DNA of 43,042 bases from positions 1 to 43,042 of the IMG/VR virus record IMGVR_UViG_3300009413_000016. One strand, given 5' to 3'. Position 1 is the first letter of the stretch, and each line of letters starts with the position of its first letter. Position numbers and translations under genes: made by a program. Of the stretch, positions 1-32,444 are shown piece by piece. The stretch comes from a virus. The notes beneath the pieces are model-generated. The model did no database searches. It had not been told where the DNA came from and saw only the letters and a program-made list of their open reading frames with translations.

Positions 1-113
1 AAAACTTGGTAAATCTCCAACTTCTATTTGAGGAATATCAAAACTAGGTAAATCTCCAACTTCTATTTGAGGAATATCAAAACTTGGTAAATCTCCAACT
101 TCTATTTGAGGAA
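1..113. repeat. 39-bp in-frame tandem repeat (unit tatcaaaacttggtaaatctccaacttctatttgaggaa); 1-98 is an exact copy of 42945-43042
   Basis: Direct comparison of the two window ends. Units are at 1-35 (partial), 36-74 and 75-113. On the minus strand each unit encodes FDIPQIEVGDLPS. Confidence 0.95.
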
Positions 114-1530
114 TATCAAAACTTCCAGCTAACTCAGTTATATTTTTTGATACTTTCTCTACAGGAGAAGTATTTTGCGCCGACGGGTCATTAGTTTCTT
201 CATCGCCAAATCCAAAGAAATTACTTACTCGGTCTAAACCTTTTGATATAGGCTGCGTCACATTTTCTTCAAATTTATTTTTGATGTTTTCCCATAGAGA
301 GGTAAATATGCTTTGGATATTATTCACAACATCAGAAAATACGCCATTAATATATTCTCCCATGTCTTGGAATATTAATTTGAACGCTTCTAGATGCGTA
401 GAAAAATCTGTGGAGAATAAATCAAATATCATTCCCCAACCGTCAAATATCATTCCGGTCAGGTCATACAGCGTTTTAAAAGCAGCAGCGGCGGCAATAA
501 TCTGATTATTCCATTCTGGATATTGCTTCAGCATTTTACCGATAAAGCTTTCGCCACCTTCAAAAAATACGTTAGCGTCTTCAGCGAGCAAAGCGAACGC
601 TGAAATTAGTCCAGTAATAAGAAGAGGTATAGCAGCTATGGCTACGTTTGCAAGCAGCGCCGCTATTTGGACGCTTCTAAAAGCTTTGGCCATAGCAAGT
701 AATGTTGTTACAAGCTTCATAGCTATAAAAGCTGCAGACGCTAATGCTAATAATTTAATTCCTTTAGTGAGCTGCTCTACATAAACAGGCAGCTGCTGCT
801 GTATTAATTCTCTATTTGCTTTCCACCATGATTCTATTTGATTCGCAACATTTTCAACAATAGGAGTTAATTCGCGGGAAAGTAATCTTGAAAAATCTTT
901 TCCTATCAAAGATAGATTTGTCAATGAGTCTTGGAATTCTGCAGAAAGAGCGGCGTCTTCAGCCGTGGCAACTCCTAAAGCTTCAGCCTCACCGATTAAT
1001 TCTCGGATTCCTTCTGAACCCTGCTGGAGCAGGCGGATAGAATTGCCTAGGCCAACTTTATTTACTAACTCATATTGTTGACTGCGAGGTAATCCTTGAA
1101 TCGCATCAGCTACTTCCATCAGCACATCTACTGTTGGTTTTAACTGGCCATTTGCGTCTGTGGCTGATATACCGAGGATACCAAATGCTTCTACAGCAGA
1201 ACCCATTCCTCTGGCTGCTTCGGAAATACCTATAGATAGACCTCGAATATCACCTTCGAGAGAGTTGGAGTCTGCACCAACACGCGACATAGCGAATGCT
1301 AATGCGTCAATAGTGCCGATGGCGATGTCTGTTTCGTCAGACAGTTTACCTTGACGGTCAACAGCGGCAGTTACAGCCGTTGAAAAACCGACCAAAGCCG
1401 CGGTCCCGGCGGCTACTGTGGTTGCGAAAGTCTTAACGAGGCTTAATCCTTTGTCAATCTCGGAATTGAATTTTTCAATATCTTCCGGGTCAAAGTCAAA
1501 GCCTAAGCCGACTAATAATTCATCCAGCAC
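1..1530 (-). CDS. tail tape measure protein, first 510 codons (continues across the window junction into 42630-43042)
   Basis: Open minus-strand frame from GTG at 1530 (AAGGAG at 1538-1543) to the window edge. It is absent from the ORF track because no stop lies inside the window. The frame joins exactly with 42630-42944. It has an Ala/Gly-rich helical N-terminus and hydrophobic central segments, and sits between the chaperone and baseplate genes. Confidence 0.85.
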   Translation of the reverse strand, partial: MLDELLVGLGFDFDPEDIEKFNSEIDKGLSLVKTFATTVAAGTAALVGFSTAVTAAVDRQGKLSDETDIAIGTIDALAFAMSRVGADSNSLEGDIRGLSIGISEAARGMGSAVEAFGILGISATDANGQLKPTVDVLMEVADAIQGLPRSQQYELVNKVGLGNSIRLLQQGSEGIRELIGEAEALGVATAEDAALSAEFQDSLTNLSLIGKDFSRLLSRELTPIVENVANQIESWWKANRELIQQQLPVYVEQLTKGIKLLALASAAFIAMKLVTTLLAMAKAFRSVQIAALLANVAIAAIPLLITGLISAFALLAEDANVFFEGGESFIGKMLKQYPEWNNQIIAAAAAFKTLYDLTGMIFDGWGMIFDLFSTDFSTHLEAFKLIFQDMGEYINGVFSDVVNNIQSIFTSLWENIKNKFEENVTQPISKGLDRVSNFFGFGDEETNDPSAQNTSPVEKVSKNITELAGSFDIPQIEVGDLPSFDIPQIEVGDLPSFDIPQIEVGDLPSF

Positions 1531-1756
1531 GTGGTTTCTCCTTAGGCTTTAGATGATTTTTTACATCTAATATCTCGTTAAGTATCAGCACGTCTTCGAT
1601 GGAGTATGTTCCATCTTCAAGTTCTCTCAGCGCGCATAATGGCGGGTCTGCGATAACTGGTCTATGTAGCCATGGGTCTACATTTTGAAAGGCTGATATA
1701 TCTACTGGTTTGCCACGCTGGACAGTTCGCTTCCTTTGTCCTGCCCTTTGAAAAAA
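1520..1756 (-). CDS. -1 frameshift extension of the tail chaperone (gpGT-like product, 2139->1520)
   Basis: T_TTT_TTC at 1750-1756 is in the zero frame (GGT TTT TTC). I translated the -1 frame by hand and it stays open for about 76 codons to TGA at 1520-1522, just past the tape measure start. Confidence 0.6.
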   Translation of the reverse strand, partial: FFQRAGQRKRTVQRGKPVDISAFQNVDPWLHRPVIADPPLCALRELEDGTYSIEDVLILNEILDVKNHLKPKEKPRAG

Positions 1757-2139
1757 CCCTTATAGTTCACCTGAACTACAAAGCCAAAAGCCTTATATAC
1801 TTCGGACATATTGTCGCCGGCATATACGCTATCAAAAACAGAGCGACTGATAATTTGGCCATCGCGGCGAGTATGACCAGTAGTCATCATGCGTACAATT
1901 AAATCCACGACTTTATCCGGAGAAGCAGATTCAAATAATTTAGATGCGGCAGTACTTAAAATAGAAACTTTATCTTCTGCAGAAGAATCTTTTTTGCTTG
2001 CCATTTGAATAATATCCGGCAAAGCCTTTCCTAGGATTGACGCTAATTCCATTTTAAATTGCATACCTACAATTGCAGGATATTGAGTGCATGAATATTC
2101 ATGCATATTGATTTCTTTTGTTTCAGTTTTACAAGACAT
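1702..2139 (-). CDS. tail assembly chaperone (gpG-like)
   Basis: ORF track 1702-2166, trimmed to the ATG at 2139, which is preceded by GGAG. It lies between the tube and tape measure genes and contains an in-frame slippery heptamer near its 3' end. Confidence 0.7.
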   Translation of the reverse strand: MSCKTETKEINMHEYSCTQYPAIVGMQFKMELASILGKALPDIIQMASKKDSSAEDKVSILSTAASKLFESASPDKVVDLIVRMMTTGHTRRDGQIISRSVFDSVYAGDNMSEVYKAFGFVVQVNYKGFFKGQDKGSELSSVANQ

Positions 2140-2170
2140 TGTTTTTCTCCAGCTTATTCCCGGCATAAAT

Positions 2171-2237: not shown

Positions 2238-2663
2238 TTATACAGCTCCACCTAAGTGAAGCAGGTCAAGTCGCTCTACGACGATTCGCCACTCTTGTGA
2301 GCCAACAGCGTTTCCACGCGTCATATCGGCAGGACGCGGAATATACCCTTGTGTGCCTGAACCGATGTCATTATTATTGGTATCCTTGAACTGCACAAAG
2401 ATAGGCACAAAAGCACCATTCTCTTGAGCCGTTGTCAGACCTGCCATATAAGCATTTGAATCTGAAGTCTGCTGGATACGGAAAATAACTTCGCCAGAAC
2501 GGTCCGCGCTTAGCGTAACCGTCATGAGTCCATCTGCGCCAATAGTATGCGCCGCCGAATCACCGAGTCTTGCAAGCTGAATAACATCATCACCTTCGTC
2601 AAACCCAGTAATTGGAACGCCGTTTACAAGCAAGATGGTATTTAAGAAAGAATAACTTTGCAT
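2238..2663 (-). CDS. tail tube protein
   Basis: 141 aa, immediately downstream of the sheath gene. Size and sequence resemble the DUF3277-type tube proteins of small myoviruses (recollection). Confidence 0.75.
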   Translation of the reverse strand: MQSYSFLNTILLVNGVPITGFDEGDDVIQLARLGDSAAHTIGADGLMTVTLSADRSGEVIFRIQQTSDSNAYMAGLTTAQENGAFVPIFVQFKDTNNNDIGSGTQGYIPRPADMTRGNAVGSQEWRIVVERLDLLHLGGAV

Positions 2664-28267: not shown

Positions 28268-28544
28268 AGCTCCAGTCGAAAAGTATTGCGTAACCTCCGT
28301 GCAAAAGCGCGGAGGTCTTTGTTTAAAATTGGCCATTATAGGCAAGCGCAACTTTCCCGACCGTACGATACTTTGCAAACCCGGCAAAGTTTTTTTCATT
28401 GAATTTAAGGCCCCAAATAAAGACTTACGAAAATCACAAGCTTGGTTTAGGCGGCTTTTACTGAGATTAGGATTTACCGTATATGTCGCAAAAACAAAAG
28501 AACAAGTTGACCAAATCCTTGACAAAGAGATGGAAGCCTCGTAG
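28224..28544 (+). CDS. VRR-NUC domain nuclease
   Basis: PDR...GKVFFIEFK (D...ExK) motif. Start is uncertain (28224 or 28245). Confidence 0.7.
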   Translation: MANRLKTMLSKQKTEAPVEKYCVTSVQKRGGLCLKLAIIGKRNFPDRTILCKPGKVFFIEFKAPNKDLRKSQAWFRRLLLRLGFTVYVAKTKEQVDQILDKEMEAS

Positions 28545-29943
28545 TTATCAACAAATGTGCGTGGATGAAGGACTGAAGCGCAAATTCCTCGCTTTCTTTA
28601 TAGACCCAGGTTTAGGCAAAACCTCAATCACCCTCCAAATATTCAACAAGCGCAAATTACGTGGTCAAGTAAAAGCCATGCTTGTGGTCGCGCCATTAAA
28701 TCCGTGCTATATGACATGGGGTCCAGAAATAAAAGAATGGACCAACTTCCGTCGATTTAAATCAGTAGTTCTACACGGCCCAATGAAAGAAGCTAATCTA
28801 AAAAAACAAGCGGATATCTACATCATAAATCCTGAAGGCCTTCAATGGTTAGCTACTAAGCTAAAAGGTAAGCGCAAAGTAAACTGGCCATTTGACATGC
28901 TCGTGGTTGATGAATCAAGTAAGTTCAAAAGCGCGGACTCATCACGCTCAAAACTTATGCACAAGATGGCTCCTGCGTTTCCTTATCGGTATATACTAAA
29001 TGGTACACCTGTCGCAAATGGGTATATGGGGTTAATGAGCCAGATGAGAATAGTAGACCAAGGGCAAAGCTTAGGAGCCAAAATTACGTATTACCGCCAG
29101 AAATATTTTGAACAATATGGAAAACCAGAATGGCGCATGTTCAAACTTTCTAAAGGCGCAGATAAACGCATCATGAAAAAGATTGCACCATTTGCTGTCT
29201 GCCTAAAAGCTGAAGACCACGTAGACATGCCGAAAGTCAATATGTATCCGCGATTTATCAAACTGAATCCACGCTCCAAAAAACTTTATGACGAGATTGA
29301 AACAGAATTCTTTGCAGAAATAGATAACAAAGAATTGATAGCGGAATCCGCGTCATCACTTGCCACTAAACTCCATCAGATATGCAATGGTTCTATATAC
29401 GAAGACCAGGACCCTCTAGGTAAGCCTCTCCCTTCAAGTAAGCGGAAAATCATATCTCTACATTCTGAGAAGTTAAGTGCACTCGAGGACCTGATAGATG
29501 AGTTTAACGGTAAGCCGATTCTTATTGGATACAAGTTTCAACACGATAAAACTACGCTGAAAAACCATTTTAAGAATAAAATTAAATTCTTTGATGATGC
29601 AAAGACAGAGCAGCAGAAAGTTAAGCTTCAAAAAGATTGGAATGCAGGCAAGATAGACTTACTTGCTGGTAATCCTCAATCAGTTGGCCATGGACTTAAT
29701 CTTCAAAAAGGCGGGGCGTCGGTAATATGCATGTATTCCATCGACCATGACTATGAAATCTTCGACCAGTTCAGAAGGCGACTATATAGAAGCGGCAACT
29801 CAGCGAATTCAGTTTCGATTGCACTTCTTGTGGCAGAAGGACTGTATGACCACATGGTTATCTATCCAAACTTAGTTAAAAAGAAAGGTGTGCAAGACTC
29901 GTTTATGGACCGATTAATCGCCTATAGAAACAGCAGAAAATAA
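28483..29943 (+). CDS. SNF2-family (SF2) helicase / translocase
   Basis: DPGLGKT (motif I), VVDESSKFK (motif II), C-terminal QSVGHGLNLQ. A 62-nt overlap with the VRR-NUC gene is required to include the PRSYQ motif. Confidence 0.8.
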   Translation: MSQKQKNKLTKSLTKRWKPRSYQQMCVDEGLKRKFLAFFIDPGLGKTSITLQIFNKRKLRGQVKAMLVVAPLNPCYMTWGPEIKEWTNFRRFKSVVLHGPMKEANLKKQADIYIINPEGLQWLATKLKGKRKVNWPFDMLVVDESSKFKSADSSRSKLMHKMAPAFPYRYILNGTPVANGYMGLMSQMRIVDQGQSLGAKITYYRQKYFEQYGKPEWRMFKLSKGADKRIMKKIAPFAVCLKAEDHVDMPKVNMYPRFIKLNPRSKKLYDEIETEFFAEIDNKELIAESASSLATKLHQICNGSIYEDQDPLGKPLPSSKRKIISLHSEKLSALEDLIDEFNGKPILIGYKFQHDKTTLKNHFKNKIKFFDDAKTEQQKVKLQKDWNAGKIDLLAGNPQSVGHGLNLQKGGASVICMYSIDHDYEIFDQFRRRLYRSGNSANSVSIALLVAEGLYDHMVIYPNLVKKKGVQDSFMDRLIAYRNSRK

Positions 29944-30382: not shown

Positions 30383-30430
30383 ATGTACATTGGATAGAAA
30401 CATTGTACAATGGCTACATCATCGAGCAAA
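30383..30430 (+). promoter_or_regulatory. promoter P3: ATGTAC-N17-TACAAT plus conserved leader
   Basis: -35-like 30383-30388, -10 at 30406-30411. Leader GGCTACATCATCGAGCAA. Confidence 0.6.
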
Positions 30431-30460
30431 ACGTTATACACATATACACGAGGAAACGTC

Positions 30461-30979
30461 ATGTTAAACATCGCTAAAGTTACTGCTGAATCTATCAAAT
30501 CTCTGTCTACCAAGGAAATCGTTGAGCTGTACAACGCTACTCTTGCACAAGTCAATGCTTCTTCTGAAGCTGAACCCCGCACTCCAGTTAAGAAATTCCG
30601 TGACCGCACAACTGCAGAATCTCGCCTTCTTAAAATCAAACAAGAATGGCAAGATATCGCAGACGGTCATACTTCTGATGTTGAAGAAAAAGCTCCAGCC
30701 AAAAAGCTTGCTAAGAAAAAAATCAAAAAAGTAAAAAAATCTGAAGTTGGTAAGCCGAAAGGTTCTATCAAGAACGTAACAATTGGTTTAATCACTGAAG
30801 GCGCAGAAGATAAAGAAATCGTTGAGGAAGTTAAAGCACAATTTCCAGATTCTAAATTTGACTTCAGCCATGTATCTTGGTACCGTTCGACTCTATTCCG
30901 CGATGGTATCATAGGTCCTGAGCACGCGCCTCGCCGTTCCAAAGCGTATAAAACTTGGAAACAAAGCGAAGAAAAATAG
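30461..30979 (+). CDS. lysine-rich DNA-binding-like protein; its C-terminal domain is paralogous to the N-terminal domain of 31049-31420
   Basis: ORF track 30410-30979, trimmed to the ATG at 30461 (GAGGAA RBS). Central KAPAKKLAKKKIKKVKK. The C-terminal domain aligns by eye with the next gene. Confidence 0.65.
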   Translation: MLNIAKVTAESIKSLSTKEIVELYNATLAQVNASSEAEPRTPVKKFRDRTTAESRLLKIKQEWQDIADGHTSDVEEKAPAKKLAKKKIKKVKKSEVGKPKGSIKNVTIGLITEGAEDKEIVEEVKAQFPDSKFDFSHVSWYRSTLFRDGIIGPEHAPRRSKAYKTWKQSEEK

Positions 30980-30992
30980 TTTATTTACCTAG

Positions 30993-31018
30993 GTAGCGTG
31001 GTACTATTTCTACGCTAC
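30993..31018 (+). terminator. hairpin GTAGCGT-N12-ACGCTAC (weak terminator candidate)
   Basis: 7-bp perfect stem with a 12-nt loop, followed by attcaatttta. Confidence 0.3.
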
Positions 31019-31048
31019 ATTCAATTTTAGTAAAAAGAGGAAATTAAA

Positions 31049-31420
31049 ATGCCAGCACAAAAAGCAAAACCATCTGCCAAAAGTATCATTGAAACCGGTA
31101 TCGAAGGCGGTAAAACCGTAAAATTCATTTTAAGCCAAATTGCCAAGAAACTGCCCGATTCAAAAGCTGATGAATCTCATGTTCGTTTTTATGCGAATAA
31201 AATGGTTCGCGATGGTAAATTAGACGAAACCACGGCGCAAGAAAAATATGGATGTGGTAAGCGTGGGCGCAAACCTGCTGAAGGTAAAACAGCGGCTAAG
31301 AAAGCCCCAGCAAAATCTACTACCGCTAAAAAGGCTCCGGCAGCAAAAAAGGCTCCAGCCGCGAAAAAACCTGCGGCCAAAAAGACTACATCGAAGCGGA
31401 AAACTACTTCAGCGAAGTAA
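31049..31420 (+). CDS. histone H1-like protein (globular N-terminal domain plus AKKAPA-repeat tail)
   Basis: GAGGAA RBS. Tail reads AAKKAPAKSTTAKKAPAAKKAPAAKKPAAKKTTSKRK. Confidence 0.7.
   Translation: MPAQKAKPSAKSIIETGIEGGKTVKFILSQIAKKLPDSKADESHVRFYANKMVRDGKLDETTAQEKYGCGKRGRKPAEGKTAAKKAPAKSTTAKKAPAAKKAPAAKKPAAKKTTSKRKTTSAK
31345..31351 (+). promoter_or_regulatory. candidate -1 ribosomal slippery heptamer A_AAA_AAG, in the zero frame of 31049-31420
   Basis: Codons are GCA AAA AAG. This is the same heptamer as the E. coli dnaX frameshift site. The -1 frame is open from here to 31638. Confidence 0.35.
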
Positions 31421-31463
31421 CAGCCGGTTCTACTGTAATTGTCAAAAAAGCAATTGAAAGAGG

Positions 31464-31491
31464 CGGCGCCAAATATTTGTGCGCCGTTTTT
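31464..31491 (+). terminator. hairpin CGGCGC-N11-GCGCCG plus T5 (terminator candidate; conflicts with coding use of the orphan frame)
   Basis: 6-bp GC stem, long 11-nt loop, then TTTTT. Confidence 0.35.
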
Positions 31492-31640
31492 GTATCTGAT
31501 GAAAGTTTTACTCTAAAAAATGTAATTGTAATAAATGCCAATTTATTTCCACATGGAGTAGTAAGAACAACATCTTCACTTGATAAGTTCAGGCAACTAT
31601 TTAATAAATTAATTGATAATCATGCTTGCAGGAGAATATA

Positions 31641-32444
31641 ATGTCCGAAAGAGAATTCGACCAGACTCAGCTTAAACTGGCTCAGTTTAAATACCAACCC
31701 CATAAAGATTACCTTGGCCACATTTTTCGTTGGGGCTTTGCTTCTAAATACGTAAATAAAAATGTGGCCGTGCTCGATGTCGGATGTGGTCAAGAAATGC
31801 CATTTGCTCGCTCATTAGGCGGTTCTAATCCGAATTCAGTTCCATCTAAATACGTTGGAGTTGACTTAAATAAAATTCCAAACCCGGTTACACGCAAGAA
31901 CTTTCATGTTGAAGACGAATTCAACTTCACTAAGAAATTCCGGACGTTGAAACGTCAGCATGGCCAATTTGATGTAATTGTTAATTTCGAAGTATTTGAA
32001 CATATGACCATGGGACATGCCCGTAAACTTCTCAAAGGTATGCGTTATTTACTTGCTGAAAATGGCGTTCTTATTTTTAGCACGCCCGTGTATTGCTCTA
32101 CGTATAAGCAAGCAAATAACCACATTAACGAAGTCACTAAAAAAGAAATGGAAGATGAACTCCATAAAGCTGGCTTCAAAATCATTAAGCAATTCGGCAC
32201 ATTCGCCAATATTAATGATATCAAAAAAGTTGCTGCTAAAGACGAGCTTGAGTCGCACAAAGCTATGGCTGAATTTTACGGTAACGAAATTTTGGGTTGC
32301 TACTTAAGCCCGAAATATCCTGAAGCATCTCGCAATGTTACGCACATCTGCGTGCGTGATGACGATGGTAGAAAAGAATGTACATTAAAAGATTCTATCG
32401 TTAAATTTACAGGCGAACCATACGGAAAATCGAGGGATAAATAA
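31641..32444 (+). CDS. class I SAM-dependent methyltransferase
   Basis: ORF track start is a TTG at 31626, trimmed to the ATG at 31641 (AGGAG RBS). Motif I VLDVGCGQE, then VIVNFEVFEHM and NGVLIFSTP. Confidence 0.75.
   Translation: MSEREFDQTQLKLAQFKYQPHKDYLGHIFRWGFASKYVNKNVAVLDVGCGQEMPFARSLGGSNPNSVPSKYVGVDLNKIPNPVTRKNFHVEDEFNFTKKFRTLKRQHGQFDVIVNFEVFEHMTMGHARKLLKGMRYLLAENGVLIFSTPVYCSTYKQANNHINEVTKKEMEDELHKAGFKIIKQFGTFANINDIKKVAAKDELESHKAMAEFYGNEILGCYLSPKYPEASRNVTHICVRDDDGRKECTLKDSIVKFTGEPYGKSRDK

Follow-up and report, generated by a model that had tools for sequence, protein, structure and literature searches.

We analysed a stretch of 43,042 nucleotides (the window) that makes up the whole of IMG/VR virus record IMGVR_UViG_3300009413_000016, a complete 43,042-bp record with direct terminal repeats from an uncultured marine phage. 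The DNA-metabolism arm of the window holds a gene for a small protein with a histone H1-like architecture, and our analysis indicates that this gene is likely to encode two proteins, the longer of which would be made by programmed -1 ribosomal frameshifting at a slippery heptamer, A_AAA_AAG, in its lysine-rich tail (coordinates in Table 1). That the heptamer serves for -1 recoding of some form we consider highly likely on the comparative sequence evidence set out below. In the proposed mechanism, most ribosomes would read the H1-like gene in frame and terminate at its own stop codon to give the 123-residue protein, and a fraction of them would slip back by one base on the heptamer, the lysyl-tRNAs re-pairing from AAA-AAG to AAA-AAA. 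These shifted ribosomes would read 96 codons of the -1 frame and finish at a TAA that overlaps the start codon of a downstream methyltransferase gene. The predicted trans-frame product has 197 residues (0-frame residues 1-101 plus 96); in it, the helical N-terminal domain and some of the tail would be joined to a basic linker and a compact domain built of a helix, four strands and a second helix. The case is carried by the co-location of the heptamer with the opening of the -1 frame, together with the distribution of -1 stop codons, the conservation of the extension, its lack of credible starts, its predicted fold and the absence of any in-frame fusion of the two halves.

The slippery heptamer and the open -1 frame in seven lineages

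Relatives of the locus were collected with two queries. L001-L005 came from a search of IMG/VR with the methyltransferase, L006-L008 from a search with an alignment of the H1-like protein, and L011-L016 from a search of JGI metagenomes with that same alignment. Seven lineages with DNA resulted: the window, L001 (=L007/L015), L002 (=L006/L014), L003 (=L008), L011/L013, L012 and L016. Neither half of the locus, H1-like gene or extension, found similar DNA or a tblastn match among GenBank phages, and the bacterial genome contigs that we searched contained no relative.

A first-pass annotation of the window, made from the letters alone, had described a frame open from 31330 to 31638 that is -1 relative to the H1-like gene, closes with a TAATG overlap with the downstream gene and can be entered through an A_AAA_AAG in the correct register. 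These features are all present in the sequence, the 0-frame codons at the heptamer being GCA/AAA/AAG. Its central proposal, that slippage joins a non-repetitive C-terminal domain of ~97 residues to the N-terminal domain and a portion of the tail, is supported by the comparative data: the conservation in related phages that it had named as a check is found, since in all seven lineages the heptamer recurs in the same register, the -1 frame is open and a start codon is missing. Each gene contains exactly one in-register A_AAA_AAG, and in every lineage this is located 4-8 codons after the -1 frame opens. From the heptamer the -1 frame continues for 73-123 codons, 63-96 of them past the 0-frame stop. 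The distance between the heptamer and that stop ranges from 15 to 133 nucleotides, and the sequences flanking the heptamer are not conserved.

The distribution of stop codons in the -1 frame changes at the heptamer. After it there are none in any of the seven lineages; the part of the tail before it has 0-9 per lineage, most of which arise from GCT-AAR. The window has 5 such stops among 29 codons, L012 has 9 among 47 and L016 has 9 among 63. When synonymous codons were permuted, the overlap of the two frames stayed free of -1 stops with a probability of 0.06 in the window, 0.05 in L001 and 0.002 in L002, and the product over the seven lineages was 1e-7. Stops in the -1 frame are thus selectively absent after the heptamer. 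The frame also stays open well beyond the end of the H1-like gene. For the window, the 74 codons past the 0-frame stop remained open under shuffling with a probability of 0.002; the same shuffle gave 0.002-0.017 per lineage and a product of 1e-17 over the seven. The other two frames of this stretch contain 9 stops each in the window and 4-11 across the lineages. The G+C content of positions 31500-31650 is only 28% (0.28-0.34 for the AT-rich part), so that stops would be expected to be frequent there.

These numbers bear on the possibility that the arrangement is an artefact or an accident, either an assembly indel in an A-run having split one gene or the frame being open by chance, which we judge extremely unlikely. 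The first-pass annotation had listed both as alternatives. The indel is excluded, error-prone as homopolymer runs are: the same A6G junction is common to seven diverged lineages from different samples, and in two of them (L002/L014 and L011/L013) it was assembled independently from different samples. In addition, the 0-frame continues past the junction as a typical Lys-rich tail to a stop codon of its own, and the homologues of the N-terminal domain end as short forms in 24/24 clusters. Lys-rich tails are poor in T and few stops are expected inside them, but the shuffle and synonymous-permutation tests exclude chance openness, and the AT-rich part of the frame is the very place where stops should be most frequent.

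A second alternative named in the first-pass annotation is transcriptional slippage, in which the polymerase would add one A in the A6 run and a subset of mRNAs would encode the fusion in a single frame. An A-run does stand at the junction in every lineage, one extra A would give an identical protein, and slippage at A-runs is known, for instance at the A9 run of Thermus dnaX (PMC3711429). However, the junction run is only A6 in 7/7 lineages and never longer, whereas known slippage sites have 8 or more, usually 8-9+ (PMC3711429). The register and the 3' G, also kept in 7/7 lineages, matter for the re-pairing of tRNAs and not for a polymerase, and other A6 runs in the same tails, which lie in another register, are not used as frame junctions. 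A run of only six A that in every lineage keeps both the ribosomal register and the G behind it disfavours polymerase slippage, which we hold to be quite unlikely, and the slip appears to be ribosomal in nature.

Across the genome of the window, in-register A_AAA_AAG occurs only three times in ~12,900 codons. At the other two sites the -1 frame closes after 3 and 5 codons, and the -1 extension from the site in the H1-like gene is far longer than that from any other heptamer. Second in length comes an in-register G_GGT_TTT / T_TTT_TTC at ~1756-1765 on the minus strand, inside an open reading frame at 1702..2166, from which the -1 frame extends by 78-79 codons (60 past the 0-frame stop). It lies directly upstream of a long minus-strand open reading frame (1..1530) in the tape-measure position, and from its sequence and setting it looks like a classical tail-assembly-chaperone G/GT frameshift.

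The predicted extension and its apparent starts

In the five long-form lineages (all but L003 and L016), conservation of the -1 protein sets in at the heptamer. BLASTP aligns L012 with L001 over the 50 residues that begin at the heptamer KK with 44% identity, no gaps and an E value of 2e-16, and most lineages have the motif KK-x3-(V/I)EKI(R/K) immediately after the site. The window contains a single ATG, GTG or TTG codon in this frame, the TTG at 31477, as the first-pass annotation had stated, and the 44 residues that precede it in the window match the profile of the other long forms (hhalign E 9e-6). Codon position 3 is the least conserved on both sides of the TTG, at 0.39 before it and 0.33 after it compared to ~0.5-0.58 for positions 1 and 2. 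An AlphaFold2 model built with the seven-sequence alignment (predicted local distance difference test score, pLDDT, 77; predicted template modelling score, pTM, 0.66) shows a helix at residues 10-26 of the extension, strands at 30-39, 42-50, 58-64 and 72-77 and a helix at 82-95, the fold being preceded by a basic linker.

Comparison of this model with structure databases gave only matches at noise level: the best Foldseek E values were 0.015 (PDB) and 0.014 (BFVD), and the best VIA Z score was 7.1. A sequence search of the PDB found no match, scores in the ESM Atlas did not exceed 0.77, and none of the matches to PHROGs was significant. The extension as predicted thus defines a new small alpha/beta domain without detectable relatives by sequence or fold. 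We rejected two free-standing, ATG-started frames, L003 1810-2067 and L004 1079-1357, as homologues of the extension (hhalign E 0.25 and 0.14).

We also considered whether the extension could be an independent small gene, unrelated to the H1-like protein, that starts at the TTG (giving 54 residues) or at a non-canonical codon, or is reached by re-initiation after the 0-frame stop. Gene callers do annotate fragments of 54-90 residues in this frame, an AGAGG stands 11 nucleotides before the TTG, and one database fragment, P0006, begins with methionine. The start-like codons are not homologous between lineages, however: the codon aligned to the TTG of the window is TTA in L001, and the GTG and TTG codons of the relatives fall at non-homologous places. 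No ATG lies near the beginning of the -1 frame in any of the seven lineages, and the L003 frame has no start-like codon in its first half and no start that would yield at least 35 residues. The heptamer, which precedes the 0-frame stop by up to 46 codons, marks the point from which the frame is both conserved and free of stops. A protein initiated at the TTG would have neither helix 1 nor strand 1 of the confidently predicted fold and would also lose some of strand 2 (residues 42-50). Finally, both the TTG and its AGAGG are buried within the strong hairpin described below, with the AGAGG forming part of the stem. From the codon comparison and the model we judge that the TTG is not a real start, and an independent gene is very unlikely.

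A profile search of 1.84e9 cluster representatives with the extension returned four true relatives, all of them fragments of 54-90 residues called from internal start-like codons; two further hits, P0003 and P0007, were discarded as repeat or immunoglobulin-type false matches. Searching with an alignment of the N-terminal domain over a range of 60-244 residues gave 24 clusters of homologues, every one of 101-146 residues. Neither this search nor the profile search, which covered all lengths, contained an in-frame fused form. A search for longer proteins did not yield one either, which by the nature of that search is weak evidence. That the two halves were never found fused in one frame is what would be expected if the ratio of the two products is the point of the arrangement.

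The far end of the extension is interlocked with the next gene. Its last residues (R-R-I in the window, R-R-I/V in the family) are encoded by the Shine-Dalgarno sequence of the methyltransferase, AGGAG, and in 4/5 long-form lineages the stop codon abuts or overlaps the next start (TAATG in the window and L012, TAAATG in L001, and TAA, 1 nucleotide and GTG in L002). In L011 the extension stop and the next gene are separated by a 12-nucleotide gap. This region of the window also holds a TTGATA-18-TATAAT sequence (31613-31642) that matches the sigma-70 consensus at 11/12 positions. Its -10 element overlaps the start codon of the methyltransferase gene, and we dropped it as a promoter of that gene and regard the match as probably a coincidence.

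Candidate stimulatory elements and the hairpin behind the 0-frame stop

A_AAA_AAG is the slippery site of dnaX and among the most efficient bacterial -1 motifs (PMC4066793, PMC5009743). In the window, the GCCGC-N10-GCGGC hairpin that the first-pass annotation had placed just downstream of the heptamer is indeed present, and RNAfold predicts a folding free energy (ΔG) of -9.9 kcal/mol for it, with a z-score of ~-3.0. It is a candidate 3' stimulator specific to this lineage: RNAalifold found no consensus structure downstream of the heptamer over the relatives, and we dropped the idea of a conserved RNA structure at that place. Shine-Dalgarno-like sequences occur 10-14 nucleotides upstream of the heptamer in L001 and L002 only (ΔG -10.7 and -8.0), and a conserved upstream stimulator of this type was likewise discarded. 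A search of positions 30900-31800 against Rfam was negative. Since the family lacks a conserved stimulator, the efficiency of frameshifting is probably low to moderate.

A much stronger hairpin lies further downstream, inside the extension. In the window its ΔG is -18.4 (z -3.9) and 0/200 shuffles fold as well. It has the form of a terminator, a GC-rich hairpin with a U-tract after the stop codon, its 3' arm ending in UUUUU, and it resembles other gene-end terminators of the window genome. A sliding fold over the whole extension, begun at the heptamer and followed by shuffle tests, revealed one outstanding hairpin 19-41 nucleotides after the 0-frame stop in 6/7 lineages (z -3.7 to -8.0, equalled by 0/200 shuffles); L011 has no such hairpin. 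Its place in the -1 protein varies, being helix 1 in L012 and, in the window as in L001 and L002, the Y-L-C strand, which argues that the hairpin tracks the end of the short-form reading frame and not the protein. The first-pass annotation had taken the terminator-like hairpin as a point in favour of a chance open frame; it proves instead to be a conserved feature positioned relative to the 0-frame stop. A clear U-tract is found in the window only and is weak or absent in the relatives, and a pattern scan detected no plus-strand terminator in four of them. Judged from these sequences, a terminator function for the family as a whole is uncertain.

At the other end of the H1-like gene, an extended -10-like element, GATAYAAT / GTTACAAT, is conserved ~40-50 nucleotides before the start codon in the relatives, which suggests that the gene has its own promoter. 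The H1-like gene therefore looks like a promoter-gene-hairpin cassette. In the simplest reading, the hairpin would be a partial terminator or a 3' stabiliser for an abundant short-form message, in which case the long isoform would depend on transcripts that read through the hairpin and include the DNA-modification operon as well. We also considered an attenuation-like switch, which the conserved hairpin might form together with the slippery site and the stop of the 0-frame. Ribosomes stopping in the 0-frame would then leave the hairpin free, the transcript would end there and only the abundant short protein would be made; ribosomes shifted to the -1 frame would translate through the hairpin, melt it and finish exactly at the methyltransferase start. 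We think such a switch unlikely. If it were true, frameshift efficiency, via modification of the host lysine tRNA, would set the flow of polymerase and ribosomes into the cytosine-modification operon.

Several points weigh against programmed frameshifting as we propose it. In-register A_AAA_AAG is common by chance in Lys-rich genes, with a probability of 0.25-0.75 per gene and a product of 2.4e-3 over the seven lineages under synonymous permutation, so that the heptamer alone is modest evidence. The extensions of L003 and L016 are shorter and not demonstrably homologous to the long form; they are weakly similar to each other and share the same arrangement. The family has no conserved stimulator, and the best bare heptamers reach only ~0.3% frameshifting in an E. 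coli reporter (PMC4066793). The slipperiness of A_AAA_AAG rests on a single hypermodified tRNA-Lys(UUU), as found in about half of bacteria (PMC4066793, PMC5009743), and the site is less slippery if the host has tRNA-Lys(CUU); the phage record itself contains zero tRNA genes. The strong terminator-like hairpin sits inside the extension, and on terminated transcripts the shifted ribosomes would run off the 3' end. Lastly, P0006, a 90-residue protein from a 2562-nucleotide Logan contig, has its initial methionine at the position of helix 1; it might stem from another frameshifted lineage in which an internal ATG was taken as the start, or be a form of the extension that stands on its own.

The H1-like protein, its neighbourhood and known frameshift systems

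AlphaFold2 predicts four helices in the N-terminal domain of the H1-like protein (domain residues 10-67; helices 10-19, 24-34, 42-55 and 60-67), followed by a disordered Lys/Ala/Pro-rich tail of the AKKAPA type with a pLDDT of ~50. The name H1-like describes this architecture alone. A Pfam search with the protein gave no Linker_histone match at E <= 1, and the chlamydial Hc2 family (PF07382) was hit by the tail only, at 12.3 bits (E 0.19) compared to a gathering cut-off of 40. Fold searches with the N-terminal domain found no match above noise: Foldseek returned GH5/H1.0 only at E 5-7, the best VIA Z score of 4.9 is noise, and many of the rows were winged-helix or helix-turn-helix proteins. 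The Lys/Ala/Pro-rich tail presumably coats or binds DNA, and the added domain would probably provide the DNA-bound protein with an extra, protein-binding function. The length of the Lys-rich tail is plastic, as shown by L013 (~2700-2800) and L011, whose genes differ in a tandem duplication of 21 residues in this tail and are identical otherwise.

The neighbouring genes of the window are included in Table 1. The 189-residue protein encoded just upstream carries the same helical domain as the H1-like protein at its C-terminus, preceded by a basic stretch, and this paralogue adjoins the H1-like gene in L001, L002, L003, L011 and L012 too. The order helicase, paralogue, H1-like gene, extension and methyltransferase is kept wherever the contigs are long enough.

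Table 1. Positions of the features discussed, in window coordinates unless a relative is named.
Feature	Position	Strand	Description
SNF2-type helicase gene	28483-29943		first in the local gene order
Gene for 189-residue protein	30410-30979		C-terminal domain paralogous to the N-terminal domain of the H1-like gene
0-frame H1-like reading frame	31049-31420	+	123 residues; stop 31418-31420; short isoform; matches phrog_17205
-1 open frame	31330-31638	+	103 codons; TAA 31639-31641
Slippery heptamer A_AAA_AAG	31345-31351	+	0-frame codons GCA/AAA/AAG, X_XXY_YYZ register; proposed -1 shift site
-1 extension	31351-31641	+	96 codons plus TAA; 74 codons past the 0-frame stop
Stem-loop GCCGC-N10-GCGGC	31358-31377	+	six pairs, 6-nucleotide spacer after the heptamer; candidate 3' stimulator; lineage-specific
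Strong hairpin	31459-31491	+	GC core 31464-31469/31481-31486, U-tract 31487-31491; 41 nucleotides past the 0-frame stop, inside the extension
TTG codon	31477-31479	+	sole ATG/GTG/TTG in the -1 frame; residue 45 of 98 from the heptamer
AGGAG / TAA / methyltransferase ATG	31630-31634 / 31639-31641 / 31641-31643	+	stop/start overlap TAATG
Class-I methyltransferase gene	31641-32444		opens operon; followed by MazG-kinase fusion and thymidylate-synthase homologue
Hairpins of relatives	L012 ~684-721; L001 ~2781-2824; L002 ~2303-2339; L003 ~1305-1339; L016 ~530-563		after the 0-frame stop
-10-like element of relatives	L001 ~2315-2325; L002 ~1845-1853; L012 ~231-239; L011 ~2447-2455		upstream of the H1-like gene

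A close parallel to the proposed site is E. coli dnaX, which makes tau and gamma from the same heptamer in the same register, as two products that share their N-terminal part. Like dnaX, the window has a stem-loop 6 nucleotides downstream, and L001 and L002 have Shine-Dalgarno-like sequences 10-14 nucleotides upstream (PMC3711429, PMC5009743). In contrast to dnaX, where the shifted frame stops almost at once and the shifted product is the shorter one, the shift here would add a 96-residue folded domain; moreover, the stimulators are not conserved across the family, and the proteins are unrelated. In its output the arrangement resembles the lambda G/GT tail assembly chaperone and the T7 capsid proteins 10A/10B, in which a -1 shift close to the 3' end of the gene of an abundant phage protein yields a longer isoform in minor amounts that carries an extra domain (PMC5009743). 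The lambda and T7 genes have structural or assembly roles and use other heptamers, G_GGA_AAG and G_GUU_UUC, whereas the gene described here encodes a putative DNA-binding protein and lies in a DNA-metabolism module. Histone H1, chlamydial Hc1/Hc2 and proteins with AlgP-type KPAA tails resemble the H1-like protein in combining a small helical domain with a Lys/Ala/Pro-rich tail of the AKKAPA type, and differ from it in that it matches no Linker_histone family in Pfam and stays below the cut-off for HC2. To our knowledge, none of the histone H1 and bacterial H1-like families uses frameshifting. Our literature search, too, produced no account of a phage histone-like protein made by frameshifting.

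Almost all of the frameshifts recognised in phages lie in genes for tail chaperones or capsid proteins; among those annotated by SEA-PHAGES, 2397/2476 are in tail chaperones (PMC10885494). The conserved -1 frameshift proposed here, in the gene of a putative DNA-coating protein from a replication and DNA-modification module, would thus be a rare non-structural example from phages, a new instance of a known mechanism, -1 programmed ribosomal frameshifting, in a gene class that is unusual for them. Automatic annotation appears to miscall the extension systematically as orphan reading frames of 54-90 residues with TTG or GTG starts, and such fragments are the only form in which the databases hold it. 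The reading that we favour, programmed frameshifting at the heptamer, would define two isoforms of a putative, abundant phage nucleoid-type protein, and the conserved hairpin inside the extension raises the question of whether recoding, transcription termination and expression of the cytosine-modification operon are coupled in these phages.

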